Shown here: one piece after another, positions 24,301 to 56,900 of the stretch
Layout: each line of letters opens with the position of its first letter
How positions within the stretch are numbered: position 1 is the stretch's first letter
Source of the DNA: Pecten maximus
Lineage: Eukaryota
Assembly (NCBI RefSeq): GCF_902652985.1
Contig: NC_047020.1
Location: forward strand, 7,440,001 to 7,504,000
Length of the DNA: 64,000 nucleotides
Reading direction: 5' to 3'
Translations under genes and position numbers: made by a program
Notes under the pieces: generated by a model
The model's database searches: none
What the model saw: the letters and a program-made list of their open reading frames with translations, nothing else
Told to the model about the DNA's origin: nothing

Positions 24301-27300
24301 CAGCTTAAAACTCTACTGTTTTAATGTGTATTAATATGTTGTACCAGTTCTCTACTAACATGTTGTACCAGTTCTCTACTAATTCACAATCATACAGAAT
24401 ATGATGGAATAGGTCTTGTGAGGAATAAAGAACAGAAAAAAGATGAAGTGGCATATTCAAAATACACATAGAATCCAAAAGAATAAAACTACATCAATAA
24501 ACAGTGAATTTGGTTCACTGATGAAACTGTCAAAAATACATAGGAACAAGACATACAAGTTCTTATAATAGACTGTTGTATAGATGGTAAGTCACAAATA
24601 CAGACAAAAACAATATATTGGACAGTGTTATAGTTGGTAAGTCACAAATATAGACAAAAACAATATATTGGACAGTGTTATAGTTGGTAAGTCACAAATA
24701 CAGACAAAAACAATATATTGGACAGTGTTCTAGTTGGTAGGTCATAAATATAGACAAAAACAATATTTTGGACAGTGTTATTTAAGGATTAACATCAATT
24801 ATGTTTTCTGTTATACAGTCATAACAGAAAAAACTGGAGTGTACTCTAAATAAACCGTGAAGCGGTTTATGAAGAGAGTACACTCCAGTTTTTTATGTTA
24901 TGACTGTATAACAGAAAAAATAATTAATGTTAATTCTTATAATTTAATTTCGTCTTATACACACCAAGATATTTCACTTTCTTTGGCGAACTCTTTTCTG
25001 TGATGAATTATTACGCAACGTCATCAGCCAATCAAAAATGACGTTACATTTCGCAACGTCAAAAATTTTGTTATGGAGGTATAACAAAATTATTTCAGCC
25101 AATGAAAATGCGTGTTTCATAAAAATTAAATTATAGTTGGTAAGTCACAAATACAGACAAAAACAATATATTGGACAGTGTTATAGTTGGTAAGTCATAA
25201 ATACAGACAAAAACAATGTATTGGACAGTGTTATAGTTGGTAAGTCACAAATACAGACAAAAACAATATATTGGACAGTGTTATAGTTGGTAAGTCACAA
25301 ATATAGACAAAAACAATATATTGGACAGTGTTATAGTTGGTAAGTCACAAATACAGACAAAAACAATATATTGGACAGTGTTCTAGTTGGTAGGTCATAA
25401 ATATAGACAAAAACAATATTTTGGACAGTGTTATTTAAGGATTAACATCAATTATGTTTTCTGTTATACAGTCATAACAGAAAAAACTGGAGTGTACTCT
25501 AAATAAACCGTGAAGCGGTTTATGAAGAGAGTACACTCCAGTTTTTTATGTTATGACTGTATAACAGAAAAAATAATTAATGTTAATTCTTATAATTTAA
25601 TTTCGTCTTATACACACCAAGATATTTCACTTTCTTTGGCGAACTCTTTTCTGTGATGAATTATTACGCAACGTCATCAGCCAATCAAAAATGACGTTAC
25701 ATTTCGCAACGTCAAAAATTTTGTTATGGAGGTATAACAAAATTATTTCAGCCAATGAAAATGCGTGTTTCATAAAAATTAAATTATAGTTGGTAAGTCA
25801 CAAATACAGACAAAAACAATATATTGGACAGTGTTATAGTTGGTAAGTCATAAATACAGACAAAAACAATGTATTGGACAGTGTTATAGTTGGTAAGTCA
25901 CAAATACAGACAAAAACAATATATTGGACAGTGGTATAGTTGGTAAGTCACAAATATAGACAAAAACAATATATTGGACAGTGTTATAGTTGGTAAGTCA
26001 CAAATACAGACAAAAACAATATATTGGACAGTGTTATAGTTGGTAAGTCACAAATACAGACAAAAACAATATATTGGACAGTGGTATAGTTGGTAAGTCA
26101 CAAATACAGACAAAAACAATATATTGGACTGTGGTATAGTTGGTAAGTCACAAATACAGACAAAAACAATATATTGGACAGTGTTATAGTTGGTAAGTCA
26201 CAAATACAGACAAAAACAATATATTGGACAGTGTTATAGTTGGTAAGTCACAAATATAGACAAAAACAATATATTGGACTGTGTTATAGTTGGAAAGTCA
26301 CAAATACAGACAAAAACAATATATTGGACAGTGTTATAGATGGTAAGTCACAAATACAGACAAAAACAATATATTGGACAGTGTTATAGTTGGTAAGTCA
26401 CAAATATAGACAAAAACAATATATTGGACAGTGTTATAGTTGGTAAGTCACAAATATAGACAAAAACAATATATTGGACTGTGTTATAGTTGGAAAGTCA
26501 CAAATACAGACAAAAACAATATATTGGACAGTGTTATAGATGGTAAGTCACAAATACAGACAAAAACAATATATTGGACAGTGTTATAGTTTGTAAGTCA
26601 CAAATACAGACAAAAACAATATATTGGACAGTGTTATAGTTGGTAAGTCATAAATACAGACAAAAACAATATATTGGGCAGTGTTATATTTGGTAAGTCA
26701 CAAATACAGACAAAAACAATATATTGGACAGTGTTATAGTTGGTAAGTCACAAATACAGACAAAAACAATATATTGGACTGTGGTATAGTTGGTAAGTCA
26801 CAAATACAGACAAAAACAATATATTGGACAGTGTTATAGTTGGTAAGTCACAAATATAGACAAAAACAATATATTGGACAGTGTTATAGTTGGTAAGTCA
26901 CAAATACAGACAAAAACAATATATTGGACAGTGTTCTAGTTGGTAGGTCATAAATATAGACAAAAACAATATTTTGGACAGTGTTATAGTTGGTAAGTCA
27001 CAAATACAGACAAAAACAATATATTGGACAGTGTTATAGTTGGAAAGTCACAAATATAGACAAAAACAATATATTGGACTGTGTTATAGTTGGAAAGTCA
27101 CAAATATAGACAAAAACAATATTTTGGACAGTGTTATAGTTGGAAAGTCACAAATACAGACAAAACAATATATTGGACAGTGTTAAAGTTGGTAAGTCAC
27201 AAATACAGACAAAAACAATATATTGGACAGTGTTATAATTGGTAAGTCATAAATACATAGAAGAATAACAATGTAAATAGACTGTTATATTATAATTGGT

Positions 27301-30300
27301 AAGTCATAAATACATTGAAGAATAACAATGTAAATACAGTGGAACTTTGTTAACTCAAACTCACAAAACTCGAATACCCCTCAAAAGTACTTTGTCATTC
27401 CCAACCCGATTTGCTCTTTATCCTTGTGAAAAAACTCGGAAAACTCGAATAACAATTTAAATAGAATGATAATTTGACATGTTAAATGTTAAATTACAGT
27501 TTGTATACAACAGTTATTTCCCTTTGTTCTGGAACGAACTCTTTTTATTAATATGGTTTAATTAAATATATATTTTTGTTGTTTATTTGTTATTAGATGT
27601 TTTTGCAAGTTCTAGACTTATTTATATAAGTGACTGTGATCTTCTATGAACATCTACATGCTTTTGTTATCATTTATGCAAATTTTACAGTACTATGTAT
27701 AGCTTATGCTAATGAGTACTTTAGGGGTTCCGACTGACCAATCAGGATTATCCCCTAGAGGGGGTCGCCAGTATTGACCATAGATTGAGGCAGTGTTTGA
27801 TGTAGGAGGTTGCTGTCATTTTTTCTATGCACTTTCTACGACTTTTCCAAGTGTTTTCACCGATCAAAAACTACCTCGAAGGTGCTTAACTTATAGCCTT
27901 ACGTACCTACAAACATGTGGACGAACTAAACAGTGATCATTTGTGTGTTGTTACAAGTGTTAAGAACTCCGGACATTTTCGTCTGCCGTTGTTTACGTGG
28001 AAAAGATTCGTTGTGTTTCTTCACGTGATGGATTATATGTAATACTCGGTCCATCGACCACTTTCTGTGCTGATCTTAGACACCATAACGTTTGATACGT
28101 TTAAGACTGTTAAATTAAAGGCCTGCGTTTCAGAGAATCGTATTCGGCGCCATGGGTTTTCGTCAACATGTGGTCGTGACCATGTGCCTTTGTTTGTAAA
28201 CGAACCCATTCAACCGTTTCGCCTGGTTTTAAATATGGGACCTAAACGCAGAAACAATCGTCCAACACCATATGATCCAGATTTATTGGAGAATTGGACA
28301 CTTTCCAGGTTACGGGAAGAGTTAAACAGACTAAATGAGCCCTTTCGTAGCAATGAGAAACGGATGGTGCTAGTAAAAAAGTTGAGGGACGCGAGGGCAT
28401 CGAGTGCGCGATCCCATAATGCACCGCGGCAAGATGGCGACCGCGGTAGTGTTGTGAATGTAAACAGCCAGCAAACTTCTAACACTGACAGCAATCACAC
28501 TAGAACTTTAATAGATTTAGTAAGCAGCTTAGCTGACAGCGTCACTAAACTGCAGGACAGTTACGTAAGGCTCGAAAGGCGAGTCTCTAACCGGACGAAT
28601 GATGACACCACAGCAGTGAATCAAACAACCGGACCCGAGCGTACTCTGACACGCAATGCCCCTGCAGCAGCTGCCGGGAGTGACGTACAAATAGCTACAG
28701 ACAATGTTAGAGGAACTCCAACAGAACCCACGTTCCTTGTGCCACCGACGGAGTATACACTAGAAACCGCCTATCGGAGTTTCAATCTCGCCAATACCGG
28801 TCAATCCCAAGGTGAGCAAATTTTGAAAAGAACTCGTTTTGGATTTGCGGCAGAATCGATGCCTTTAGTTGAGACTGTATCCCCGTCTTTGCGACAACAA
28901 ATTATTTCTGGTAAAGATGTTAACTTAGCAGCGCTGCTTATACCCTATTTCTGCGGCCAGAGTGATCCTGGTGCCCACACGTCCGAGAAACCAGACGTTA
29001 GACTAAATAGAACACTCACTCTCAGTGAATTTATTTTGGCTTTTGGGGTGTATAAGCATGTTATGTGTACTGCTCATCCCTCTAGGCATATCGAGTTAGA
29101 TCTCTACGAACGTGATATCGTCGATATGGGTACCCGTTATGCCTTTGGATTTTATGAGTACCATAAGCAATTTTCCTTACGTGCTGCTGCCCATTTACGC
29201 TTCAACAACACTCCCATAGACTGGTCCATTAGGGATAATACTCTCTTTTGTAACATTTTTGCGAATCAAAGACCAGTTACCTGTGAAGTTTGTTGTAGCA
29301 CTCTACATCAAACTAGTTTCTGCCCTACACCTACAGACCAGAGACCAGGACAATTCCAGAAAAATACTGGTACACAGAGAATCTCTACCAACAAAAGTTC
29401 TGCTACACTTGATTCCAAAGGAAGAAAGAAAGAATATCATGAAGGACGCGAAATTTGTAACAATTACAATGGATCAGACGGTTGTAGCAGGCCTGTGTGT
29501 TACTATCACCATGTGTGTTTGAACTGTAAGTCTGGTCACCCCAAGTTTGCGTGCCCTTTAGAGTTAACCAGGCCTCCTACTCGCAAGAAATAGCAGTATC
29601 ACACTCTTTAGTGATAACACCTATTGATATACCGGCTTTGACTTATGAACTTCGTAATCATCCGGATAGGTCGTTTGTTCAACTTTTGATAGATGGGCTC
29701 ACATATGGGTTTGATACCGGTTTTCAGACTTTACCGAATAGGTCTGTTATATGCAAAAATCTAAGATCAGCCTTAGATGACCCTGTTTGCGTTACCGATT
29801 TAGTACAAAAGGAATTAGACAAGGGATACCTTTTAGGGCCTTTTGACTCTATTCCTTTTACCAATTACCGTATTAACCCTATCGGATTGGCAGAGCACAA
29901 ATACTCAAAAAAGAAAAGGCTTATTGTTGACCTATCGGCTCCGCATGATGATTCCGACAACCCCAGTCTGAACAGCCTTATTGACAAGACAACATGCTCT
30001 TTACATTACGTTACTATCGATGATGCTATTCAGCTTATTAAATCACTGGGAAAAAATGCATGGTTAATGAAGACAGACATAACGGACGCTTTCAAGTTAT
30101 TACCTATCAAACCAGAACTGTGGCCTTATCATGGTATTCAGTGGAACAATAAGTTTTATTTCTTTACTAGACTAGTGTTCGGTAGTAGATCGAGCCCTAA
30201 GTTATTTGACAACCTATCTAGAGCAGTCTGCTGGATCGCAAGAAATAACTACAACTTATTGAACATTTTACATCTGTTGGATGATTTTCTAGTAATTGAA

Positions 30301-33300
30301 TCAGCTTCAGTGAATGCTACTGTTACCATGGAGAGACTCTTGTCGGTTTTTTCTAAATTACGCATTCCTCTAGGAGCTCACAAAACCGTGGGTCCCTGTA
30401 CTTCTTTGGAATACCTGGGGGTCATTTTGGATTCCGTTACCAGTGAAGTCCGATTACCATTGGAGAAGATAGCACGGATTTCAACTATAGTAGACTCTTT
30501 TAAGTGGAGGAAATCTTGTACCAAACGTGAACTCCTCAGTCTACTTGGTCATATGATTTTCGCTTGTCGGTGTATCAGACCGGGTCGCTCATTTGTTTCT
30601 CACTTGATTAAACTTTCTACAACAGTTGAGAAATTACATTATCATGTAAAACTCACCGACGATTGTCGCGCAGATCTCGATATGTGGTCTCACTTTTTGA
30701 GACAGTGGAATGGTGTTTCGTTCTTTTTAGATGACCACATAACCAATTCAGCTGACTTACATTTGTTCACTGATGCCACTCTCGACTCATTTGGAGGGAT
30801 TTATTTGAATCAGTGGTTTCAAGGATTTTTTCCTCAGAGCTTAAAAAATACTGACCCGTCTATGGCCCTTTTTGAACTATATCCGATTGTGATGGCGTGT
30901 GTTCTATGGGGACATCAGTGGTCTAAGAAACGTATTTTGTTCCACTGTGACAATTTAGCTACCGTTGAAATCATCTCGAAGGGACGTTCTAAAGTTAAGA
31001 GCATCATGGGGCTTATGCGTAAACTAACTTACCATTCTGCCATCAACAATTATGTCATCCATGCTATTCACATACCCGGGAAACTAAATAATGTTGCGGA
31101 TGCAATTTCTCGGTTCCAGATGCAGCGTTTCAGGCAGCTGGCACCCAAGGCCGATGCCTTTCCAATTCCCTGTCTCCAAATGTCTGCTTTAATGATGAAC
31201 TAAGCTCAGAGGTGGACAAGTTGTGGAACTGTGCTCTAAGTGAAAGAACTCTTGCCACTTACCGATCAGGTTTGAAGTGTTTTCAAACTTTCATTCTCTT
31301 ACAAGGCATCGCCTTTCCAGTGAATTCACTACCACCAGTGTCAGAAGATCTACTTATCCGTTTTGTCACTTATTGCCATACAGCCTTAAGCTTGAAATTT
31401 GACACTATAAAGCTGTACCTGGCTGGCGTGCGTTTTTTCTACATTCGTTATAATTTCGGAGATCCCCTAACTTACACTACAAGATTGTCATACATTTTAC
31501 GGGCAATTAAGAAAAATCGCGTAGGTGATACTTATAAACGTTTTCCTATCACTTGCGATGTGCTTACAAAATTGTGTTGGGTGCTATCTAGTACAAGTGG
31601 TGTGTTTGAGCCTTTTATTGACCAGATGCTCATATGTGTGTTCAAGACAGCCTTTTACGGCTTTCTACGATGTGGCGAGTTTACTTGTTCGAAACGCCAA
31701 GATCACAACTTTATTCGTTTCCGTGATATAAATGTGTTACCTGACAAGTCTTGTTTTCATCTGTGTTTACGCTCTTCGAAAACCGACCCATTCGGTAAAG
31801 GTGTGGTTATCAAAATCTTTGAGAATGGTTCGTTGGCTCCAGTATCCACGATGCAGAACTATTTACAAATGCGACTTTTGCAAGGTGCCAATCCAGATTC
31901 TCCTTTGTTTGTGGACAATGCACTTTCGTCCAAACCTCTTTTGCGCTGCACTTTTATCTCATACTTGAAAGATACTTTAACGCGGGTAGGGGTAGACAAC
32001 CGTGATTACAATGGTCATTCCTTTCGGATTGGTGCTGCCACCTCGGCTGCAGCAGCTGGTGTTGAAGACCATGTTATTCAAACTCTTGGAAGGTGGTCTT
32101 CCGATTGCTACGTACGATATATTCGCATCGACCCTTCGATCGTTGCTCTAGCTCAGATGAATATGACCATTACTAAGTAGGTTGTGTCTTATATTATAGA
32201 TGGCATGTTTATTATCCTAAGTACTGTATATAGGCATGTTTTCATGAGTTCATTCATTATATAATATGTTCAAATCAGTATTAATGATTTTATCTTAATT
32301 TATTGGGGGCTCTCACTCATAAGTAGTAGTGTATACATTTTACTTATTTCGCTCAATTTTGGCTTTTAATTCCAGGGGAATTTATACCCCCAATAAATCG
32401 TTAACATATACATTATATTTCTTCAAGAATACTTAGAGTCAAGAAGTTTCTCTGTCTCCTCGCACAGAGTCAAACTTTTTCTCTTTTATATTCTTTATAC
32501 GCAAACACTAGAGTCAAGTTGCTTCTCCACTCTTCTGGGGAGTCAAGCTTCTTCTCTATGCTTAGCCATCTCTTAAAAGCATAAAGTCAAGTTGCTTCTC
32601 TGAAGTTCGGCAGGGTCAAGCTTCTTCTTTATGTAGTTTTATACTTATAATTAGAGTCAAGTCGCTTCTCTGGAGTTTCGACAGGGTCAAGCCTCTTCTC
32701 TATGTTTTTTACTTAGGTTGGTAATAGTATGTTATGTATGTAGCTATGTTTTGAGTGAGTAGCCCCTGATTGCCAAATTTTATGTTTTCTGTAGTAATAA
32801 ACTGGTTAACTGTTGATTGCGTTTTTGTTGTATATAAAATGATAATTTGACATGTTAAATGTTAAATTACAGTTTGTATACAACAGTTATTTCCCTTTGT
32901 TCTGGAACGAACTCTTTTTATTAATATGGTTTAATTAAATATATATTTTTGTTGTTTATTTGTTATTAGATGTTTTTGCAAGTTCTAGACTTATTTATAT
33001 AAGTGACTGTGATCTTCTATGAACATCTACATGCTTTTGTTATCATTTATGCAAATTTTACAGTACTATGTATAGCTTATGCTAATGAGTACTTTAGGGG
33101 TTCCGACTGACCAATCAGGATTATCCCCTAGAGGGGGTCGCCAGTATTGACCATAGATTGAGGCAGTGTTTGATGTAGGAGGTTGCTGTCATTTTTTCTA
33201 TGCACCCACCCACCATCCCCTGCATCACCGCTTTTATTTCATTTTCTCTGCATTTTTATAATTTTTGCGATTACATCTTTCTGTCTTATGTATATCATGG

Positions 33301-34044
33301 TATGCATTACTTTCTATGTATTTTCTTTTGTATGGGCTACTCACTCTTTAGGTTTTTATGGTCTTGTCCAGGCTTTTAATTCCAGGGGAATTTATACCCC
33401 CAATAAATCGTTAACATATACATTATATTTCTTCAAGAATACTTAGAGTCAAGAAGTTTCTCTGTCTCCTCGCACAGAGTCAAACTTTTTCTCTTTTATA
33501 TTCTTTATACGCAAACACTAGAGTCAAGTTGCTTCTCCACTCTTCTGGGGAGTCAAGCTTCTTCTCTATGCTTAGCCATCTCTTAAAAGCATAAAGTCAA
33601 GTTGCTTCTCTGAAGTTCGGCAGGGTCAAGCTTCTTCTTTATGTAGTTTTATACTTATAATTAGAGTCAAGTCGCTTCTCTGGAGTTTCGACAGGGTCAA
33701 GCCTCTTCTCTATGTTTTTTACTTAGGTTGGTAATAGTATGTTATGTATGTAGCTATGTTTTGAGTGAGTAGCCCCTGATTGCCAAATTTTATGTTTTCT
33801 GTAGTAATAAACTGGTTAACTGTTGATTGCGTTTTTGTTGTATATAAACTGTGTTTTAATTGGTAAGTCATAAATACATAGACAAATAACAACGTAATTA
33901 AATAAGAGTTTTATATTAGATCAATTGATATATTGCAGGTTACTGGCTCCTCACATCAGTCGACTTCCCATGCCAGAGGATTACTGTCTTCAGGAACTAC
34001 GAGAACTCGTCAGGAGTCACATTATAGAGACAACAGTTACATGA
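251..34044 (+). CDS. NUP98: Nuclear pore complex protein Nup98-Nup96 precursor, 3' portion (autoproteolysis site plus Nup96), multi-exon gene span
   Basis: GT-AG exons join in phase except at one junction (near 17080). They give recognisable Nup98/96 motifs: VKHFTKYG, PASHRLA..MKASF, DAALFMGRSFRVGWGPNWTLAH, DWKRALALHLWY, FASQLESLGLWEWAVF, LLAPHISRLPMPEDY. The 5' part of the gene lies upstream of the window. Confidence 0.96.
835..1245. repeat. Degenerate ~75-bp tandem repeat
   Basis: Recurrent gcaaattttttctcaa.gagagtttatcgtgat.caaa.gagtgttatggacatttt. Confidence 0.7.
1281..1893. mobile_element. hAT-like MITE
   Basis: 8-bp TSD GTACTGTG (1273-1280, 1894-1901); TAGTG...CACTA termini; subterminal (c/a)tcgat motifs at both ends. 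Confidence 0.8.
2690..3395. repeat. 65/67-bp minisatellite
   Basis: Unit gattttagtattggtataacagaaacaagaagtaaaaacacagtatacca(gta/ttact)gtacttacacat. Confidence 0.95.
3527..5482. repeat. 43/41-bp minisatellite with 635-bp higher-order period
   Basis: Unit gatatctagtaaagatgattgataatgaaacagtaaacacatg; variant pattern recurs at 3768, 4403, 5038. Confidence 0.95.
6661..6889 (+). CDS. NUP98: Nup96 exon (low-complexity linker KPGQQKPG...EEYIDDM)
   Basis: tttcag acceptor, open frame, phase 0 in and phase 1 out fits neighbours. Confidence 0.75.
6895..7659. repeat. 29/36-bp minisatellite filling a whole intron
   Basis: Unit atttacaaagctgatctctggtacattgt. Confidence 0.95.
7668..7802 (+). CDS. NUP98: Nup96 exon (DEDLDD...PASHRLAASMGVSAHSMQMMKASFFG), copy 1
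   Basis: tgtag acceptor, gtaaga donor, conserved Nup96 N-terminal motif, phase 1-1. Confidence 0.88.
8130..8273 (+). CDS. NUP98: Nup96 exon (DRDKAIEKR...FREQQ), copy 1
   Basis: tacag acceptor, gtaaga donor, 144 bp, phase 1-1, open frame. Confidence 0.8.
8523..8657 (+). CDS. NUP98: Duplicate of exon 7668-7802 (copy 2)
   Basis: Near-identical copy at +855 bp with intact splice sites. Confidence 0.65.
8989..9132 (+). CDS. NUP98: Duplicate of exon 8130-8273 (copy 2)
   Basis: Near-identical copy (one synonymous cac/cat change), intact splice sites. Confidence 0.65.
10569..10871 (+). CDS. NUP98: Nup96 exon (…DAALFMGRSFRVGWGPNWTLAHCG…)
   Basis: Highly conserved Nup96 motif; AG/GT boundaries, phase 1-1. 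Confidence 0.93.
11593..11732 (+). CDS. NUP98: Nup96 exon (EKDVVGFSLL...EDTTVV)
   Basis: ttacag acceptor, gttagt donor, phases compatible. Confidence 0.8.
12242..12386 (+). CDS. NUP98: Nup96 exon (HNHEELLMIQLDHS...CPHFVPSPGVDALHQYA)
   Basis: Nup96-like CP.fVP..Gv.alh.Y motif; AG acceptor, gtaagg donor. Confidence 0.88.
12797..12892 (+). CDS. NUP98: Nup96 exon (…VFDLCVSLWGRLP…)
   Basis: LC.aLWG motif; ttacag acceptor, gtaggt donor. Confidence 0.88.
13060..15895. repeat. 63-bp minisatellite containing the acceptor and first bases of exon 15887; interrupted by a HINE
   Basis: Unit agagtgacattgaaatgctgttgtAG|atgatatagtaacatgagtgatcgagctggttatctt. Confidence 0.92.
13332..15414 (+). mobile_element. 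Non-autonomous Helentron-like element (HINE/DINE-1/pearl type) with internal tandem array
   Basis: 5' subTIR ggtcatctga plus local inverted repeat; (ccgt/gcgcc) microsatellite; ~140/186-bp internal repeats (326-bp period); 3' subTIR tcagatgacc; terminal hairpin aggccc...gggcct; host 63-bp unit resumes after it. Confidence 0.85.
15887..16002 (+). CDS. NUP98: Nup96 exon (…DRREALSQWLMDT…)
   Basis: RRealS.WL motif; ttgtag acceptor, gtgagt donor. Confidence 0.88.
16367..16546 (+). CDS. NUP98: Nup96 exon (…LSGNQISEACSLAQSSSDHRLALTLAQ…)
   Basis: Conserved EAC.LAQ.sgDHRLAL motif; cttcag acceptor, gtgagt donor. Confidence 0.93.
16585..16821. mobile_element. Degenerate PIF/Harbinger-like MITE
   Basis: tta|ggcctgaaaaa...gtttctg at left, cagaaaca...ttttttt at right; right end decayed. 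Confidence 0.4.
17080..17217 (+). CDS. NUP98: Nup96 exon (GYLDPVRQKIYSLMAG...DWKRALALHLW); 5' boundary out of phase by 1 nt
   Basis: Conserved DWKR...HLW motif; acceptor ambiguous (AG ending 17079 or 17087). Confidence 0.85.
17514..17789 (+). CDS. NUP98: Nup96 exon (YLCPPSCPI...PLPPYLE...DTCYHLLKLYS...LDYRL)
   Basis: Conserved Nup96 domain motifs; tacag acceptor, gtaagc donor. Confidence 0.93.
17766..18312. repeat. ~41-43-bp minisatellite made of the exon 3' end plus 5' splice site
   Basis: Unit agtcacctggactacaggctcAG|GTAAGctcctctctatat. Confidence 0.93.
18483..20234. repeat. 32/33-bp minisatellite split by an insertion at 18882-20043
   Basis: Unit gtgtattgtttgacAG|GTaatgttaaaaagcat; ends just before the acceptor of exon 20246. 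Confidence 0.93.
18882..20043 (-). mobile_element. Solo A-spacer-B relic of a Ngaro-like YR retrotransposon (non-coding)
   Basis: Minus strand starts atgatattttg and ends ttgtgtataaa, like the full element (atgataatttg ... ttgtatataaa). Shares collinear motifs (gtttgta.acaaca, gaccaat, C-rich ccaccatcc, ttttaa.t.c.ggggaattt...ccccc, gag.agcccct...tgccaaa, aataaa). Precise insertion in the host repeat. Confidence 0.8.
20246..20401 (+). CDS. NUP98: Nup96 exon (SWHLHQSL...FASQLESLGLWEWAVFAVLHI)
   Basis: Conserved motif; ttacag acceptor, gtaagt donor. Confidence 0.93.
20614..20743 (+). CDS. NUP98: Nup96 exon (RESAVRELLLRH...VPAEWIHFAK)
   Basis: Conserved motif; tttag acceptor, gtaagg donor. Confidence 0.92.
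21065..21188 (+). CDS. NUP98: Nup96 exon (AMRAR...HWNDSHRVVLNHIASDAIIS)
   Basis: Conserved hW...H....hlASDAII motif; atag acceptor, gtaggt donor. Confidence 0.92.
21149..21665. repeat. 78/69-bp minisatellite (7 copies) made of the last 40 nt of the exon plus donor
   Basis: Unit gtggtactgaa.cac....tcagatgctatcatcagtG|GTAGGtttggg... Confidence 0.93.
22351..22508 (+). CDS. NUP98: Nup96 exon (ENHDYLRKFLAEL...DWSRGGHVFMDYI)
   Basis: Conserved motif; tttcag acceptor, gtaagt donor. Confidence 0.92.
22580..23119. mobile_element. PIF/Harbinger-like MITE
   Basis: ~30-bp imperfect TIR ggccata.aaa.t.aatt..ttggttct.agg; flanks tga/taa. Confidence 0.7.
23357..23451 (+). CDS. NUP98: Nup96 exon (QRSNVHLEGLHSDVMSLCSRV...KDR)
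   Basis: LE.Lh..v.SLCSR motif; ttgtag acceptor, gtatgg donor. Confidence 0.88.
23507..23566 (+). mobile_element. 5'-truncated retroposon tail (SINE/LINE 3' end)
   Basis: 12-bp TSD ttaaatatacac (23495-23506, 23567-23578); tail ggacgtaaaacccat(aaat)n. Confidence 0.7.
24197..24289 (+). CDS. NUP98: Nup96 exon (LCQSEMSKKCAYLLRT…)
   Basis: L.QSeMaK motif; ctcag acceptor, gtcagt donor. Confidence 0.88.
24782..25134. mobile_element. 353-bp non-coding insertion with long terminal hairpin, copy 1
   Basis: ~70-bp inverted arms around ccgtgaagcgg; second inverted pair tataatttaattt/aaattaaattata; ttat duplicated at ends. Confidence 0.75.
25435..25787. mobile_element. 353-bp hairpin insertion, copy 2
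   Basis: No difference from copy 1 seen by eye; offset 653 bp = 353 + 6 x 50. Confidence 0.75.
27337..27450. mobile_element. Possible Tc1/pogo-type MITE end fragment
   Basis: ta|cagtggaact...aactcgaa motifs; only one end seen. Confidence 0.35.
27466..27832 (+). repeat. Split direct repeat A1
   Basis: 367 bp, matches 32839-33205; contains CCAAT at 27738. Confidence 0.93.
28235..29593 (+). CDS. Gag-like ORF1 (N-terminal helix-extension-helix-like segment; C-terminal CCHC/CCCH zinc fingers)
   Basis: First ATG at 28235 in the open frame; CEVCCSTLHQTSFC and CNNYN...C...C...HHVCLNCKSGHPKFAC. Confidence 0.88.
   Translation: MGPKRRNNRPTPYDPDLLENWTLSRLREELNRLNEPFRSNEKRMVLVKKLRDARASSARSHNAPRQDGDRGSVVNVNSQQTSNTDSNHTRTLIDLVSSLADSVTKLQDSYVRLERRVSNRTNDDTTAVNQTTGPERTLTRNAPAAAAGSDVQIATDNVRGTPTEPTFLVPPTEYTLETAYRSFNLANTGQSQGEQILKRTRFGFAAESMPLVETVSPSLRQQIISGKDVNLAALLIPYFCGQSDPGAHTSEKPDVRLNRTLTLSEFILAFGVYKHVMCTAHPSRHIELDLYERDIVDMGTRYAFGFYEYHKQFSLRAAAHLRFNNTPIDWSIRDNTLFCNIFANQRPVTCEVCCSTLHQTSFCPTPTDQRPGQFQKNTGTQRISTNKSSATLDSKGRKKEYHEGREICNNYNGSDGCSRPVCYYHHVCLNCKSGHPKFACPLELTRPPTRKK
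29551..31203 (+). CDS. Reverse transcriptase + RNase H (DIRS/Ngaro type)
   Basis: RLIVDLS, KTDITDAF, FGSRSSP, HLLDDF, LEYLG; RNase H FTDA, ELYPI, HCDN, NVADAISR; overlaps gag in the -1 frame, no ATG at start. Confidence 0.95.
   Translation: MPFRVNQASYSQEIAVSHSLVITPIDIPALTYELRNHPDRSFVQLLIDGLTYGFDTGFQTLPNRSVICKNLRSALDDPVCVTDLVQKELDKGYLLGPFDSIPFTNYRINPIGLAEHKYSKKKRLIVDLSAPHDDSDNPSLNSLIDKTTCSLHYVTIDDAIQLIKSLGKNAWLMKTDITDAFKLLPIKPELWPYHGIQWNNKFYFFTRLVFGSRSSPKLFDNLSRAVCWIARNNYNLLNILHLLDDFLVIESASVNATVTMERLLSVFSKLRIPLGAHKTVGPCTSLEYLGVILDSVTSEVRLPLEKIARISTIVDSFKWRKSCTKRELLSLLGHMIFACRCIRPGRSFVSHLIKLSTTVEKLHYHVKLTDDCRADLDMWSHFLRQWNGVSFFLDDHITNSADLHLFTDATLDSFGGIYLNQWFQGFFPQSLKNTDPSMALFELYPIVMACVLWGHQWSKKRILFHCDNLATVEIISKGRSKVKSIMGLMRKLTYHSAINNYVIHAIHIPGKLNNVADAISRFQMQRFRQLAPKADAFPIPCLQMSALMMN
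31212..32180 (+). CDS. Tyrosine recombinase
   Basis: Catalytic residues GFLRCGE (R), SKTD (K), HSFR (H,R), GRW, YVRY (Y); frame is open from 31092. Confidence 0.95.
   Translation: MDKLWNCALSERTLATYRSGLKCFQTFILLQGIAFPVNSLPPVSEDLLIRFVTYCHTALSLKFDTIKLYLAGVRFFYIRYNFGDPLTYTTRLSYILRAIKKNRVGDTYKRFPITCDVLTKLCWVLSSTSGVFEPFIDQMLICVFKTAFYGFLRCGEFTCSKRQDHNFIRFRDINVLPDKSCFHLCLRSSKTDPFGKGVVIKIFENGSLAPVSTMQNYLQMRLLQGANPDSPLFVDNALSSKPLLRCTFISYLKDTLTRVGVDNRDYNGHSFRIGAATSAAAAGVEDHVIQTLGRWSSDCYVRYIRIDPSIVALAQMNMTITK
32361..32838 (+). repeat. Split direct repeat B1
   Basis: 478 bp, matches 33371-33848; directly abuts A2. Confidence 0.93.
32839..33205 (+). repeat. Split direct repeat A2
   Basis: Copy of A1. 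Confidence 0.93.
33371..33848 (+). repeat. Split direct repeat B2
   Basis: Copy of B1; AATAAA at 33806. Confidence 0.93.
33939..34044 (+). CDS. NUP98: Nup96 terminal exon (LLAPHISRLPMPEDYCLQELRELVRSHIIETTVT*)
   Basis: Conserved C-terminal motif; ttgcag acceptor; TGA 34042-34044; AATAAA near 34393. Confidence 0.93.
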
Positions 34045-35825
34045 TAGTGTCTATAGCTTTTTTTAAAAAAAAGGATTTTTTCAGACTTCGAAATAAGTGA
34101 CAATTATGTTTTTGGTGATTATGTATTGATGATCATCAGCTACTATTGTATTTCGTTTGGGAAATGAAACCTTAAACAGTATAATATGTGATGAAATATC
34201 TTGTGGAATTATATTCCTTTATACACATAATTGGACAGGATACTGAGGAAGTTAAAATTTTGGTAAACTGTGAACATTGTGTAAGACAGTGATAAAGTTG
34301 GTGTCATTATTGACTGATAACTGGTCATACTAACGTGGAAACTGGACTGGAAATATGATATGTACGGTCATTTAATTTGTGGTTATATGTTTAATAAATT
34401 AGGCCTAAAAAGCCTTTAAAATATACCTTATATAAAGGGTCATTCCAGGTTAGAGTACATGTATATTGAAGAAGAGATGAGAGACATTCCTAATTGATGG
34501 TTTATACGCAACAAATCTAGAGGACCCGAGTTTTAGCTACTATCCTGTAATATTGACATAGATTCCTAGATCATGTACTCATCTTTTATACTTAACACAC
34601 ATCAACCTTATCAGCCTGAACTACTACATTTATTTGGCTGTCTTGGGGGCTACTAGACTCCATCAACTCATCCTTGATTATGGATTAATAGTATCTCGAC
34701 TAGATTTAGCCTAAATTGATCTGTAGTCTTATGTTGGGAGGTTCCATAGTCCAGGTTGGGACCTTTGGTCCTAGAGCTCATGTTGGGATTGAAGATCCTT
34801 TATCCTCCGGTCTGGGAGCCTATGTTGGTTAGTATACGAATGGTCAGGTTTTGTATATTAGGCACTGACAGCTTGTTATATAGGTAATTGCGGGAAATAC
34901 ATTATGCTATTAAATTGTCGGCACTCAAAAGACTACTTTAAAAAATCGACTTCATGTTTGTAATTCAAGAAATATACCTTGTACATGCTGAAAAATATGG
35001 TACAGTGCTTTGTGCGGACCTCTTCAGTTACCAGCTCTAGGAAGCTAAACACAGATACAGAAACAATCTTTAGTATGCATGGACTCTCAAGGATATGTAA
35101 ACATTACACAAAGTCGTTACATCTAAATTAAAATGTTTCTTGGGATCAGAACAAACACACAGAATATTTCTTGTGAACACATATTCACTTTCAAAAACAT
35201 CACCTCTTACACCAGTATGAAATACATTTGAAAAGAAATTGTAATTTAACTTGATCCTTTATTGTTGATTTGATATCAGTTGAAAATGTGACTTTTCAAA
35301 ATGAGATTATGAGGAAATAACTTTGTAAAGACTTTCAAAATGCTGACCATTCTGGTATTGATCTGTATACTGTTTACTGGTACTGTGGTATTGTGGTGCC
35401 ACCTCGCACTCCAGTGCGGTTTGTACGAGTTTTTAATTTATATCACGATAGACATACTTGGAAGTTCCTTGTAGCCTACTTCTGTATTTCATCTACTCTA
35501 AAATGATTTCCTTCATGATAGTGTTTTCATTCATAGATCATTGCATATCATTTTATTGTCAAGTTTTTCCTGCGATAACTGGGAACTGGACACATTCTTT
35601 GTGTGTGTAACTATTGTGTATAACTGATGTATCTTATTGTCTGAAAATTAAAAAAGCTCACTTTATCAAAGTATTTCTGAGACTTGTTTGTTCAACTGGC
35701 TGTACCAAATCAGGTGTAGTGAAGTTCTCCACATCCATATTTATGCCTGTACTATTTTGGAACTGATAAAAATAACAAAATGGTTGACAGGAAGCCATCT
35801 TGAAATTTCACAGTTGAATTTTATT

Positions 35826-36336
35826 TTTAGCTAACCTGGCCAGAAGAGCTGGTGAGCTTATGCCATGACACATTGTCAACATTTGCTTCAAATTGCTACT
35901 TGTCAAAAAGTCATGAATGGATTTTAACCAAATTTTGTCAGGAAGGTCCTTCGGGGTAGGGGAAGACATTTTGCATAAATGGTGACTGTAACCCCCTTTG
36001 GCCAGAGGGGCGGGGCCCAATAAGGGAAATAGAGGCAATTCCTTAAAATCACTTCTTGTAAAAAAAAGTTCTGAATGAATTTGAACCAAATTTGGTCAGA
36101 AATATCCTTAGGGGAACGGGAACAGATTTTGCATAAATGGTGAGGGCCAGAGAGAGGGGGCCTTGGAGGGTAAAAACTCCTTGAAGAATGACAGGATTTG
36201 GTCCGTGTTTGGTTTACACTGTAGTTGGAAGAAGCAGCAAAAAAGGCAGAAAAATAATTGTAATGTAACTTAAAATATTATTGCCAAGATTACTGAAATA
36301 TCCAGGTGAGTGATGCAGGCCCTCTGGGCCTCTTGT
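35826..36336 (+). mobile_element. HINE (non-autonomous Helentron-like), second family
   Basis: tttagctaacctg...ggtgagct 5' end; 3' caggtgag subTIR and aggccc...gggcct hairpin followed by cttgtt. Confidence 0.72.
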
Positions 36337-37097
36337 TATCATTTATTGAGATGTAATAAATGGGTATTTTTCTGAAACTTAATGTGTATGTTCCTCTTGG
36401 TCCTTAGTTGTACATATTCAGTTTTGAAACTGAATGGAAAAAGCAAAATGGCTAATTGTGGCCATCTTTAATTTGATTACAACCGTTTAAAACATGTTTC
36501 TCTATTACTCGGGAAGTATTTCATTTTCCTTAAATTTCATCATAGTGATTAGTCCCTTTTTGTACATGTTTAATTTTGAGACTGATCAATAAAAACCAAA
36601 ATATTGGATTTTGATGGCTACATGGAAAGTGTTTTCCTTATTAGTAGGTTCTTCTTTATCTCAAGTAGTGTATGTTCAATGATCAGAACAAAAGTGATAT
36701 GACAAAAGTCAATTGTACAGGCAAGGATAGAAAAGATGAAAGAAGTACAGAATTTATCAAACATGCAAAGAACCAGTGAAGGTTATACAGTGTTTGGGCC
36801 CAAAGATCCCTCAAGGATCTCTTGTTAAGCCTTCTTACAGGTAATGTTTCGTCTATTGAAACTGTTGACAAGTTTTAAAAAAAGGTTTATGGGATTTGTA
36901 AGAAGAAACTTTAAGAGAATGTGCAGGAACTCAATCTGACAAAGTGTTAAATTTTCCAGAGAGAATGTGCAGGAACTCAATCTGACAAAGTGTTAAATTA
37001 GTTCAGACACTGTTGGAACATGTTCAATAATGTTAGATCAATCTATTTGTAAATAAAATGCATCTCGGCATTCTGAAACTTAGCAGGAATGGGGGGG

Positions 37098-50900: not shown

Positions 50901-53900
50901 CAATATTAATTGTATGTTTGAATCTATTTCCTGGTGTTGTTAACGATGTTTATCATGGCTAGGTTTTCATCTCTTTGGAAAAGATTATTGATGAGATTTT
51001 GTGTTTACGTCACATTAGAAATATATAGATGTCTCATGTATCAGGAATTATGGAAAAGTTCCTTAAGTATAGACCACAGATAAACTTGAAAGTTTACTTT
51101 CTTGAAACAGAACACCATACCCCCATATTACCTGAGATTTTCTAGCATTCTGAATCCTCCTTGTAATGTTGCTACTTCCTATATTGACCCACAGTTGAAT
51201 AGATCTTTGATAACAAGACTAAGGTTTTTCCCGGTCAAACAATGATGTCAGAGCTCAACATTTTTATTTACTCTCTACTGATTTTCTGAATGCAAATTGA
51301 AATACAAAATTATTCAAATATTTTCCATACAAATGTGGAATACAGGATGAATTGTTCTTTAACAGTACAGAGACCGGATAGTAACTCTGTGGCAGTAATA
51401 TACCGCTATGTATACACATCTAAAACAATCAATACTCTAATGGAATTTACAATTGGTGATAACTAATTCATGTTAAAGGTCACCAAAATCACCGTTTTGG
51501 AACGGAGCAAATAAAATGGGGCAATTGAATTTACAGTTTGATGTTAACTATTGTACATTGTGTGTACCAACACACGATAGGGTGTGAACACGCCCCTGGT
51601 TTGGAGCACTGGTTCATTTAGATCAGTCCCAACAAGACTAAAATCACTGGGTACATCAGAGATCAGGAGGGGATATTGTAATTTACTAGGAAGTTCTTTT
51701 GGTCAGATCGTCAAACATCAAGATCACTCTTACGAAAAATACAAAATTGCATGGCTTCTGCCCAATAATGTAACCCAAGGTCCTTTGGACTGAAAAAAAA
51801 CGCTCAAACTAAACACATTTATTCTGTACCCAAACATGGCTTGGGAATACTTTTTGATGTGAAAAGTCAAAGGTAAAGATTCCTTGCTATCGGTAGAAAT
51901 AATAATCTTTATATGTACATGTATCTCCCATTTGTGCATGTATCTCCCATTTGTGTATATATATCTGTATTACAGTCTGTGGTGTATATATCTCCCATTT
52001 GTGTATATATATCTGTATTACAGTCTGTGGTGTATATATCTCCCATTTGTGTATATCTGTATTACAGTCTGTGGTATATATATCTCCCATTTGTGTATAT
52101 CTGTATTACAGTCTGTGGTATATATATCTCCCATTTGTGTATATATATCTGTATTACAGTCTGTGGTGTATATATCTCCCATTTGTGCATATCTGTATTA
52201 CAGTCTGTGGTATATATATCTCCCATTTGTGTATATCTGTATTACAGTCTGTGGTATATATATCTCCCATTTGTGTATATATATCTGTATTACAGTCTGG
52301 TGTATATATCTCCCATTTGTGTATATCTGTATTACAGTCTGTGGTGTATATATCTCCCATTTGTGTATATCTGTATTACAGTCTGTGGTGTATATATCTC
52401 CCATTTGTGTTTATCTGTATCACAGTCTGTTTTATATATATCTCCCATTTGTGTATATCTGTATTACAGTCTGTGGTGTATATATCTCCCATTTGTGTAT
52501 ATCTGTATTACAGTCTGTGGTATATATATCTCCAATTTGTGTATATCTGTATTACAGTCTGTGGTATATATATCTACCATTTGTGTGTATCTGTATTACA
52601 GTCTGTGGTATATATATCTCCCATTTGTGTATATCTGTATTACAGTCTGTGGTATATATATCTCCCATTTGTGTATATCTGTATTACAGTCTGTGGTATA
52701 TATATCTCCCATTTGTGTATATCTGTATTACAGTCTGTGGTATATATATCTCCCATTTGTGTGTATATCTGTATTACAGTTAGTGGTATATATATCTCTC
52801 ATTTGTGTATATCTGTATTACAGTCTGTGGTGTATATATATCCCATTTGTGTATATCTGTATTACAGTCTGTGGTATATATATCTCCCATCTGTGTATAT
52901 CTGTATTACAGTCTGTGGTGTATATATCTCCCATCTGTGTATATCTGTATTACAGTCTGTGGTGTATATATATCCCATTTGTGTATATCTGTATTACAGT
53001 CTGTGGTATATATATCTCCCATTTGTGTATATCTGTATTACAGTCTGTGGTGTATGTATCTCCCATTTGTGTATATATCTGTATTACAGTCTGTGGTATA
53101 TATATCTCTCATTTGTGTATATCTGTATTACAGTCTGTGGTGTATATATCTCCCATTTGTGTATATCTGTATTACAGTCTGTGGTATATATATCTCTCAT
53201 TTGTGTATATCTGTATTACAGTCTGTGGTATATATCTCTCATTTGTGTATATCTGTATTACAGTCTGTGGTGTATATATCTCCCATTTGTGTATATCTGT
53301 ATTACAGTCTGTGGTATATATATCTCCCATTTGTGTATATCTGTATTACAGTCTGTGGTATATATATCTCTCATTTGTGTATATCTGTATTACAGTCTGT
53401 GGTGTATATCTCCCATTTGTGCATATCTGTATTACAGTCTGTGGTGTATATATCTCCATTTTGTGTATATCTGTATTACAGTCTGTGGTATATATATCTC
53501 CCATTTGTGTATATCTGTATTACAGTCTGTGGTATATGTATCTCCCATTTGTGTATATCTGTATTACAGTCAGTGGTATATATCTCCCATTTGTGTATAT
53601 CTGTATTACAGTCTGTGGTATATATATCTCCCATTTGTGTATATCTGTATTACAGTCTGTGGTATATATATCTCCCATTTGTGTATATCTGTATTACAGT
53701 CTGTGGTATATATATCTCCCATTTGTGTATATCTGTATTACAGTCTGTGGTATATATATCTCCCATTTGTGTATATCTGTATTACAGTCTGTGGTATATA
53801 TATCTCCCATTTGTGTGTATATCTGTATTACAGTTAGTGGTATATATATCTCTCATTTGTGTATATCTGTATTACAGTCTGTGGTGTATATATATCCCAT

Positions 53901-56900
53901 TTGTGTATATCTGTATTACAGTCTGTGGTATATATATCTCCCATTTGTGTATATCTGTATTACAGTCTGTGGTATATATATCTCCCATTTGTGTATATCT
54001 GTATTACAGTCTGTGGTATATATATCTCCCATTTGTGTATATCTGTATTACAGTCTGTGGTGTATATATCTCCCATTTGTGTATATCTGTATTACAGTCT
54101 GCGGTATATATATCTCCCATTTGTGTATATCTGTATTACAGTCTGTGGTATATATATCTCCCATTTGTGTATATCTGTATTACAGTCTGCGGTGTATGTA
54201 TCTCCCATTTGTGTATATCTGTATTACAGTCTGTGGTGTATGTATCTCCCATTTGTGTATATCTGTATTACAGTCTGTGGTATATATATCTCCCATTTGT
54301 GTATATCTGTATTACAGTCTGTGGTATATTGTTACAGGAGGTCTATACGGTGGGTCGGCCATCATTAAGTCCCGTCTCCTCCCCTTCCTCGGCAGCAACT
54401 TCTTCTCTTCTGGAGGAGCAGTGACTGCTGATGCCAGTCTGTCCGTCCTTGCCGAGGCTGCTGGCAAAAACAGGGAGCTGGATGAGCTTCAGGATATGTA
54501 CGAGAAATCGTTACAGGATTTGGAGGTGGACCTTGATGATAAGAAGGCAGAATTACAAGATGTCCGAGATGAGTGAGTGATGTTTCTGGGGAAGGAGGAC
54601 ATGTTTGTCTGTTTAAGAGTCTTAAGTGGTGATCAAAAAGGGTGTTATGGAATAGTACATTATACTGATAGGAAGATTGATTGTAATGTGATATTACCTG
54701 TCGATAGAAGAATGAGGCGAACGGTGAAACATTATATGTATGTATAAATGGTGTAAAGCTAGCGTTGGATAGCCACATTATCAGGCTCCGAGATTAAGAT
54801 TACTGAGAGACTAATTGATGGGCTGATGTAAGGGGGTTTCAGGGATAAATGGATCTATGCTTTTGAGGATATAAGTAAAAAAAAGCTCTCATTTGGTTGA
54901 TATTTAATCAGTAAGAAAATCAGCTGATAGGATATATGTGACAAGAGTCATTGTTTTTAAATGATGGAAGACATAGTAAGAGATGAATATTCTATCAGGC
55001 TGGTCTTATAAGGGTTGGTTCTTGACCTAAATATGCTGCTGATTTTCAGGCTTTTGGATGCAAAGAATGAGCTAAATCGCAGCATGCGTTCTTCACAAAG
55101 TGACAAGATGTTCCTGGAAACTGAAGTACAAGAGTTGAGAAGAAAGTAAGCACCTTATTGTAATTATTGTTAAAGTTTTCTCCTCCTTTCCACAGGCTGC
55201 AGGACACTAAAGAGGAGCTCAACCGAACTCTGCGTACATCCACAAGTGATAAAATGTTAACAGAGGTCGAAACTAGAGAGCTAAGGAGGAAGTAAGACAA
55301 AATTATATATAAATTGTGGTCAACCGTACTTGTGGTGACAACAGTTTCTCGCTTCTCCATAGCTCCTAGATGTCTTGTTTCTAACCCATTCATGCATACC
55401 TTTTCTTCAATTAACCGGGAAAATGCTGTGTTGGTTTTAGTTTCCATCACCCAATGTTGACTTGCTGTAATAGGCCATTTTAGACGTTGTTACTGCTGAT
55501 GTAACTCTCTGGAATAGTTTAGCTTATGAATTGCATGTTTTCCTAGGTGCCTCTGACCATTTTCCATGGTCTACAAACACATCAGTGTTTGTGAGGTATA
55601 TAGATATTTATATGATAAGTCATTTTATCTTTATACTACTGATCATCTAAGAGGTGTAACATGTGTATATTTTACACAGATACACAGATTTTATTCTGAC
55701 TATAGGAAATTGAAAAAATTCCTCTGCTGTCAGCTCAGTTGTAAAGAGATAGATTTTTCATAGTTCAAAGTCAGAAACTATCAAGTTTATATTACAATCA
55801 CAGGCAAAGTTGGCACCCTGTCTCACACCTCTGTTCTGACGGTCTATATTTACTCTTACTACACCGAATTGTGGCCACCAACTGTTGACAGCACTCTATA
55901 TATATCCATACCCTTACTGCACCGAATTGTGGCCACCAACTGTTGACAGCACTCTATATATATCCATACCCTTACTGCACCGAATTGTGGCCACCAACTG
56001 TTGACAGCACTCTATATATATCCATACCCTTACTGCACCGAATTGTGGCCACCAACTGTTGACAGCACTCTATATATATCCATACCCTTACTGCACCGAA
56101 TTGTGGCCACCAACTGTTGACAGCACTCTATATATATCCATACCCTTACTGCACCGAATTGTGGCCACCAACTGTTGACAGCACTCTATATATATCCATA
56201 CCCTTACTGCCACCGAATTGTGGCCACCAACTGTTGACAGCACTCTATATATATCCATACCCTTACTGCACTGAATTGTGGCCACCAACTGTTGACAGCA
56301 CTCTATATATATCCATACTCTTACTGCACCGAATTGTGGCCACCAACTGTTGACAGCACTCTATATATATCCATACCCTTACTGCACTGAATTGTGGCCA
56401 CCAACTGTTGACAGCACTCTATATATATCCATACCCTTACTGCACCGAATTGTGGCCACCAACTGTTGACAGCACTCTATATATATCCATACCCTTACTG
56501 CACCGAATTGTGGCCACCAACTGTTGACAGCACTCTATGTATGTATACTCATTCTTGTCCTCTGGACTGTCAGTCCCTACTCGGTCCTTTAGGAGGTTTC
56601 TACGTGTACCTCCAGGGATAGCCCTGTATGTAGTGAGGATGTGAAGGTGACAGTTATAGCCATATAACCGACACTAGTGCCACTGTTGTATATGGGTAAT
56701 GGTATTTTATGCACTGATCAGTAGATCAAAAGAATAGTTGTATAGGAGAAAAGTATGATTTTGTAGTGGTAGTATTAATATGGGAACGTTCTTAATCTGG
56801 ATAATCAAAACATATTCTTATACATATATTAAGATGAAGAAAAAAATTGCTTTTCTTGTGCAGATATAATATTAAGGAATATATATACATGTACATGTAG

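Follow-up and report, generated by a model that had tools for sequence, protein, structure and literature searches.

A variable array of two-fold symmetric hairpins inside a conserved long-range helix around the B repeat of an Ngaro-type retrotransposon, and its possible role as an RNA recognition signal

Introduction

The locus described here bears on two steps in the replication of tyrosine recombinase (YR) retrotransposons, namely the selection of their RNA and the initiation of reverse transcription. The packaging signals of retroviruses and LTR retrotransposons are short stem-loops which are read by a CCHC nucleocapsid and are situated towards the 5' end, beside a tRNA primer site. In the window, by which we mean the whole 64,000-nucleotide stretch of Pecten maximus DNA analysed, a preliminary description made from the letters alone had reported an array of eight copies of a short motif in the B repeat of a retrotransposon, and had proposed it to be a multivalent structured module of RNA or single-stranded DNA for binding of Gag or reverse transcriptase (RT), packaging or self-primed or protein-primed reverse transcription. 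The question which this raises is whether the array is a genuine structure and, if so, what it serves. The analysis established that the array is real, selected and part of a larger, previously unrecognised architecture. Judged from sequence, it appears to work like a cis-acting RNA recognition signal of a retroelement, and it belongs to none of the curated families tested. The locus offers natural controls, as there are families with different hairpins, with none, or with dozens of copies.

The host element

By its split repeats, its three frames and the lack of a methyltransferase, the element which harbours the array is classified on sequence grounds as an intact Ngaro-type YR retrotransposon (Table 1). 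The available text of two descriptions (PMC9210276, PMC8547959) gives the Ngaro layout as A1-[gag, RT/RH, YR]-B1-A2-B2 with near-identical repeats and no methyltransferase; the window element has the same split-repeat layout but no hydrolase ORF, and its array and long-range helix are absent from those descriptions as far as their available text extends. The Gag protein contains a CX2CX4HX4C knuckle, a CCCH-type finger and a CX2CX3HX4C motif. No Pfam family besides RVT_1 was matched by the RT frame down to E 0.5, nor was a methyltransferase tail found on it, while RNase H, which is without a Pfam match, was assigned from C-terminal motifs; none of the 17 intact RT frames exceeds 650 aa, in agreement with the lack of a methyltransferase domain which sets Ngaro apart from DIRS-like and PAT-like elements. 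The YR query gave 124 scored relatives in genome G000 and none in genome or viral contigs, and the RT alignment likewise revealed no relatives in viral contigs. The best-matching named RT relatives of the window element are from scallops and mussels. The RT tree comprised 17 intact frames (G000 rows only, with broken frames left out), and as the forks around the window element are unresolved in this tree no claim of co-evolution is made.

Cover by transcript data was patchy and of low depth: a run recorded as RNA yielded a 222-nt assembled contig over 32375-32596 at a depth of about 5 (4 of 24 runs examined), and one assembled contig joins the spacer and B in a run which is only presumed to be RNA. 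The element sits at the edge of a 50-nt satellite (24579-27330 and 33849-33900) with no evident target duplication, and the window is rich in other tandem arrays, its long open frames at 51863-54576 being a 44-nt satellite. Solo A-B remnants are known in Ngaro elements according to the available text of PMC8547959; at L031:6790-7327 (G000:C1) a solo copy 99% like the B repeat of the window, spanning from the 5' strand of the scaffold described below to the B end, was observed inside a simple satellite.

Table 1. Features of the element and of its 3' region (window positions)
Feature	Position	Strand	Basis
A1 repeat, left end of element; one substitution as compared to A2	27465..27832	+	repeat comparison
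gag-like ORF	28226..29593	+	stop-free frame; no Pfam match above cut-off
RT-RNase H frame, 557 aa	29530..31203	+	Pfam RVT_1, E 2.9e-12
Tyrosine recombinase (YR) frame	31092..32180	+	Pfam Phage_integrase, E 9e-6, just below curated cut-off
Long-range helix, 5' strand in B1 context, outside the repeat	32300..32319	+	duplex -31.1 kcal/mol, beats 20/20 shuffles
B1 repeat, starting at GGC of conserved TTTGGC	32361..32838	+	repeat comparison
Hairpin 1 (copies 1+2; middle triplets fully paired)	32434..32484	+	predicted fold, register test
Hairpin 2 (copies 3+4)	32509..32558	+	predicted fold, register test
Hairpin 3 (copies 5+6)	32579..32634	+	predicted fold, register test
Hairpin 4 (copies 7+8)	32652..32702	+	predicted fold, register test
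Long-range helix, 3' strand GAGTGAGTAGCCCC, then GCCAAA	32752..32779	+	sequence, duplex test
AATAAA, candidate poly(A) signal, present in B2 too	32796..32801	+	sequence
Two-stem hairpin across the B1|A2 junction	32824..32886	+	z -5.6; junction at internal-loop base
A2 repeat	32838..33205	+	repeat comparison
Unique spacer, 165 nt, C-rich tract at its start	33206..33370	+	repeat comparison
B2 repeat	33371..33848	+	repeat comparison
Second four-hairpin array, in B2	33444-33712	+	motif matches

The array is predicted to fold in a specific register

The eight motif copies of B1 start at 32435, 32466, 32510, 32539, 32583, 32612, 32653 and 32683, and a second set of eight is present in B2 at an offset of 1010 nt. 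In the 64-kb window the motif RRRGTCAARNNNNTTYTY has 16 exact matches, all in B1 and B2, and two further matches with one mismatch elsewhere (18 in total); shuffled windows gave a mean of 1.85 matches at up to one mismatch and none of 100 shuffles reached 18. The eight copies and their recurrence in both B repeats, as well as the alternation of short and long spacers (13, 26, 11, 26, 11, 23 and 12 nt in order), were thus borne out, while the strict GTCAAG consensus given in the preliminary description held for seven of the eight copies, copy 2 reading GTCAAA. The motif is best written as GAG-TC-AAG-nnn-CTT-CTC, a 17-nt quasi-palindrome, owing to which any two copies are able to pair and much of the pairing follows from palindromy alone. 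The spacing within pairs is near-fixed at 29 nt, with 295 of 309 neighbour distances at 27-31 nt, and the exact two-motif pattern was matched 320 times in genome G000 as compared to 0 for the reversed control.

In the predicted fold the array forms four rod-like, two-fold symmetric hairpins with the copies paired 1-2, 3-4, 5-6 and 7-8. Each hairpin comprises two small modules (CUU-CUC paired to GAG-UC-AAG) about nine pairs apart, the irregularity in a module being a UC bulge or a 1x3 loop, with two UC bulges per hairpin. The continuous middle helix aagtt/agctt which had been proposed was not upheld, as this part actually consists of AAG/CTT, a 2x2 pyrimidine loop plus a G-C pair, and then CTT/AAG, the middle being fully paired in unit 1 only.

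Against dinucleotide shuffles the fold of the array scored z -2.8 (plus strand) and -2.1 (minus strand) as RNA, and -3.6 (plus) and -2.9 (minus) as DNA. Total energy was z -1.7 relative to controls in which the eight motifs were kept and the spacers shuffled (20 of 300 as good), z -1.9 relative to triplet-permuted controls (11 of 300) and z -0.75 relative to a shuffled word repeated eight times (63 of 300). The 1-2/3-4/5-6/7-8 register corresponds to 47 expected pairs, 11-13 for each hairpin, and no sequence attained it in two control sets of 120 each (medians of 15 and 11 pairs), which indicates that the spacers specify four discrete hairpins. The earlier statement that consecutive motif pairs fold on each other is therefore sustained by the register test; in the comparison with tandem-duplicated controls which had been suggested, total energy was only weakly better, whereas the specific register was matched by none.

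Covariation and strand

The aligned set consisted of 23 of the 26 distinct 29-nt-spaced units, three near-duplicates from L036 being left out, and RNAalifold returned the same rod for these. Cross-pairing between the two copies of a unit gave 19 cells changed on both sides as compared to 8.7 in shuffles (0 of 500), counts which overstate independence as the units share descent. These two-sided changes were concentrated in the outer flank of the hairpins, which covaries across related families; at the outer pair 3-54, 22 of the 23 units are paired, by four pair types. The core pairs hardly vary and form through palindromy alone, and at the two central pairs 20-21 of the 23 units are open, giving the conserved pyrimidine loop. 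A self-hairpin of the single motif was rejected: its core pairs equally well, but its outermost flank pairs hold in just 5 and 6 of the 23 units, and 9 cells were changed on both sides as opposed to the 19 for cross-pairing. When 36 units were collapsed to 12 types for a permutation test of flank pairing, 40 of 48 pairs held in the outer flanks (p 0.003) and 25 of 36 in the inner flanks (p 0.06, not significant), such that the compensatory differences noted previously between units are sustained for the outer flanks and not for the inner.

Read on the plus strand, the non-Watson-Crick pairs of the motif cores are G-U in 9 cases and A-C in 2, and the same count of 9 versus 2 was obtained for the long-range helix before B2 in 10 selected families. 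By energy the strand lean is slight for the window insert (z -2.9 plus, -2.6 minus) and is reversed in L065 and L072. The lean of the wobble pairs to the plus strand suggests that the array is read as RNA. The single-stranded cDNA of DIRS-1 is antisense in the available text of PMC7192593, which, with the wobble pairs on the plus strand, disfavours the single-stranded DNA option; the register, the covariation and the parallel arrays in other families described below lend support to the proposed multivalent module as a structure of the plus strand.

A conserved long-range helix encloses the insert

The B repeat is framed by a long-range helix which is conserved between families; the array is a variable insert within it, the four hairpins being displayed in the loop which this helix closes. 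The GCCAAA which follows the 3' strand is complementary to the TTTGGC at the B edge, and a second 5' strand, perfectly matching, is found in the spacer before B2 at 33334-33346. For comparison, 40 loci around YR genes of 30-66% identity were taken, and 15 families were used for the helix tests. The families have a 3' frame order in common, namely a G-run strand before B1, TTTGG at the B edge, a C-run and the variable insert, followed by GAG(T/C)AGCCCC, GCCAAA, AATAAA and the B end; the B left edge is at or within a few bases of TTTGG in 13 of 17 elements. The helix beat all 20 shuffles in 11 of the 15 families before B1 and in 10 before B2, and was not recovered for L078, L079 and L046 in both contexts, for L050 before B1, and for L072 and L075 before B2. 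As the two upstream strands are located outside the repeat, each is maintained separately. In the own-partner test a family's own strand was best in only 5 of 15 cases before B1 and 7 of 15 before B2, the better-scoring partners often being close relatives with near-identical strands. In the B1 context the 5' strand can alternatively pair with the nearby C-run at 32387-32396, which suggests a two-state scaffold.

The G-run before B1 resembles a tRNA-Pro primer-binding site; a tRNA primer site at this position was rejected, as the run changes together with the downstream strand across families.

The enclosing helix, the turnover of hairpins and the amplification in non-coding families described below go beyond the preliminary description. 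Rfam gave a single chance match (E 4), outside the element, for window positions 27260-37080, and no match at gathering score for five related loci. Literature searches, with the founding Ngaro papers outside their scope, identified no description of RNA structure in Ngaro repeats, and neither 'hairpin' nor 'secondary structure' appears as a term in the main text of PMC9210276, PMC8547959 and PMC6681497.

Turnover of the insert between families and hosts

In a search of G000 with B1 the relatives matched mainly over the array. The module of the window fills the insert in L035, L040 and L083, and in L061 (RT 73% identical) a TAG variant is present as single and double modules, the half-hairpins keeping the folded module although the linear 17-mer is broken. 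The inserts of L065 and L066 contain hairpins with ATCGC loops, other repeated hairpins occupy the same slot in L042, L072 and L076, and the B inserts of L067, L071 and L075 are short with a fold z near 0; L068, with intact frames, has no evident array in its B insert. On the plus strand the insert fold z was -2.4 or lower in 10 of 15 families. Motif and fold are kept between families with proteins about 60-80% identical, while the linkers have diverged. Hairpin type and RT similarity do not correspond cleanly, with L065 (77%) having mainly the other type, common to L066 (64%), and in an alignment of the Gag fingers inspected by eye no residues were seen to go with a given type of hairpin.

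The same frame is shared by three elements whose contigs are filed under Sedimenticola and Ca. Thiodiazotropha MAGs and are probably host DNA. In six tests on these elements the long-range helix outscored every shuffle four times, and arrays of their own are present in L097 (z -3.1) and L098 (z -8.3), the latter consisting of six bulged hairpins with varying stems and constant loops, while the insert repeats of L095 give nested pairings and no discrete hairpins. Animal retrotransposon sequence in metagenome or bacterial MAG records, in this case L081 (NSIT01000324.1) and L094-L098, is probably host contamination. A separate observation concerns the distant family L075, where about 39 copies of the word GGTGACCGCAGTTGCCA, which can form a hairpin with G-U pairs, were found between YR and B1 (L075:5850-7400, minus strand).

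Non-coding families and mosaics

A 5.9-kb family with A and B repeats (L036:3366-9308, G000:C19) has no gag, RT or YR match and carries 37-38 internal motif copies per element in all four whole copies. These whole copies are 99.5-99.8% alike with repeats 99-100% identical, and the family has been recently active. Its pattern was found at 22 loci (L009-L030), two of them overlapping, which amounts to at least 21 distinct loci. The ends of this family resemble those of the L066 family, and its array is 75-87% like the arrays of the window's clade. A second non-coding split-repeat element, L082, has 25 motif copies, and mosaics at L034:5894-7254 (minus strand) and L093:5020-5750 string together B modules from two or three families. 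The exact two-motif pattern had 0 matches in viral contigs and one in metagenome contigs, L081, which represents the same 5.9-kb family and is therefore not independent evidence.

TOC1 of Chlamydomonas and kangaroo-1 of Volvox, of which one is non-coding, are likewise YR elements with split direct repeats in which short repeats form an internal array of variable size. In their case the repeats are plain tandem units which are not known to have been assigned a structure or function.

The RT of DIRS-1 acts in trans according to the available text of PMC7192593, so that selection on the parasites would be expected to favour anything which brings in the machinery of the helper.

Proposed function of the array

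We consider it about an even chance that the array constitutes multivalent cis-acting RNA recognition sites for the zinc-finger Gag of the element, a predicted partner, with packaging of the RNA or its selection into an RNP as the outcome. Each module would be a binding site for an RNA-binding protein which the element encodes, most probably through the zinc fingers of Gag and possibly as a dimer, and the many copies would raise avidity, by which the RNA would be selectively drawn into the particle or RNP where it is reverse-transcribed. On read-through RNA with both B repeats the number of sites would be double that on an mRNA which ends in B1. Over time lineages would swap one hairpin type for another, and non-coding parasitic families would gain by amplifying and collecting modules. 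The presence of zinc-knuckle CCHC and CCCH motifs in Gag supports recognition by this protein. It is weakened by the hairpin type not following RT similarity cleanly, by the existence of intact families without an array, and by the parasite which mixes L066-like ends with an array of the window's clade, a combination which fits a host factor equally. As in retroviral packaging signals, there are several short stem-loops, a Gag zinc knuckle and exploitation by non-autonomous elements; in contrast to these, the array has a 3' location, is duplicated with the B repeat and is enclosed by a long-range helix. CH-boxes serve genome packaging in the available text of PMC6681497.

A rather unlikely alternative is that the hairpins attract a host protein for RNA export or localisation (NXF1:NXT1 or a motor adaptor), by which unspliced element RNA would leave the nucleus or reach the germ line. 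The CTE of type-D retroviruses, as given in the available text of PMC4330390, has two lobes which each bind NXF1:NXT1, and it has in common with the hairpins a two-fold symmetric stem-loop with two motif copies and a position at the 3' end of unspliced RNA; transport by the host would also explain a family with L066-like ends profiting from the motif of the window. The CTE, however, is a single structure of about 130 nt (PMC4330390, available text), as compared to four hairpins of about 50 nt with pyrimidine bulges, and no Rfam or sequence match was found. Furthermore, the hairpin type changes between families in one host, and several unrelated types in a single host genome are unexpected for one constant protein.

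It is also unlikely, and to a greater degree, that the array binds RT (for recruitment, initiation or template switching) or is catalytic, and in this manner serves a self-primed or protein-primed start. The array is located about 70 nt inside the B left edge, which in 13 of 17 elements is found at the conserved TTTGG or a few bases from it, and on a repeat-annealing model this edge would be the start of the cDNA in B2 and its end in B1. The available text of PMC7192593 gives no known primer for DIRS-1 and, citing Poulter and Goodwin, mentions its 3' hairpin as a possible one. Against this explanation, hairpins vary in number and type from none to six and more, the array is more than 800 nt upstream of B in the non-coding family, no ribozyme family was matched, and the conserved candidate for priming is the scaffold and not the array. 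Priming by the array itself, as envisaged in the preliminary description, is hence improbable, given that the hairpins vary, that some intact families are without an array and that the conserved features flank it.

That the copies are sites in double-stranded DNA, either arm-type sites of the recombinase or enhancers for an A-repeat promoter, with the hairpins a by-product of the palindrome, has a low probability. Such sites would agree with the near-fixed 29-nt spacing, the invariant core, the position of B immediately upstream of A and the weakness of folding energy alone; they would not account for flanks which covary across two copies and not within one, for spacers which select a register, for the half-hairpins of L061 which retain the fold without the linear word, or for wobble pairs which lean to one strand. 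Neutral tandem duplication of a short palindrome in the 3' non-coding region is highly improbable, for although the units are clearly related by duplication and some families are without arrays, motif and fold are kept while linkers diverge, and other families and hosts carry unrelated arrays at this position.

The array could form part of a wider arrangement, which we regard as doubtful when taken as a whole, whereby the Ngaro B repeat would be a modular RNA domain running tRNA-independent replication. The conserved two-state scaffold would make reverse transcription start at the left edge of B2, for instance by folding back of the 3' GCC onto the GGC of that edge, and stop at the left edge of B1. 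The loop of the helix would serve as a plug-in slot for lineage-specific, multivalent protein-binding hairpins, which non-coding parasites would capture and amplify, and the hairpin at the B|A junction would be a folded single-stranded recombination site comparable to integron attC. If true, an entire superfamily of retroelements would have a cis-acting architecture of a new kind.

The B|A junction and the A2 edge

A junction hairpin was found in all 15 families (the window, L036, L042, L046, L049, L050, L061, L065, L067, L071, L072, L075, L076, L078 and L079) with z from -2.0 to -5.9, the repeat boundary coinciding with, or adjoining, the base of the internal loop, and a family's own arm was best in 10 of the 15. 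The attC site of integrons is a recombination site in folded single-stranded form, and the junction hairpin could be a single-stranded recombination site of this kind; it could also mask a poly(A) downstream element in B1 and thereby permit read-through. A C-rich tract begins exactly at the A2 right edge (33205-33220 in the window) in 15 of the 16 elements for which this edge was determined, the exception being L072, where the A2 edge is shortened by an indel, and it is present in L095 (3850), L097 (6957) and L098 (1939). The tract is possibly a signal for template switching or second-strand synthesis. Read as its reverse complement, the tract resembles a G-quadruplex sequence, and in L049, L050 and L071 it has four GGG runs.
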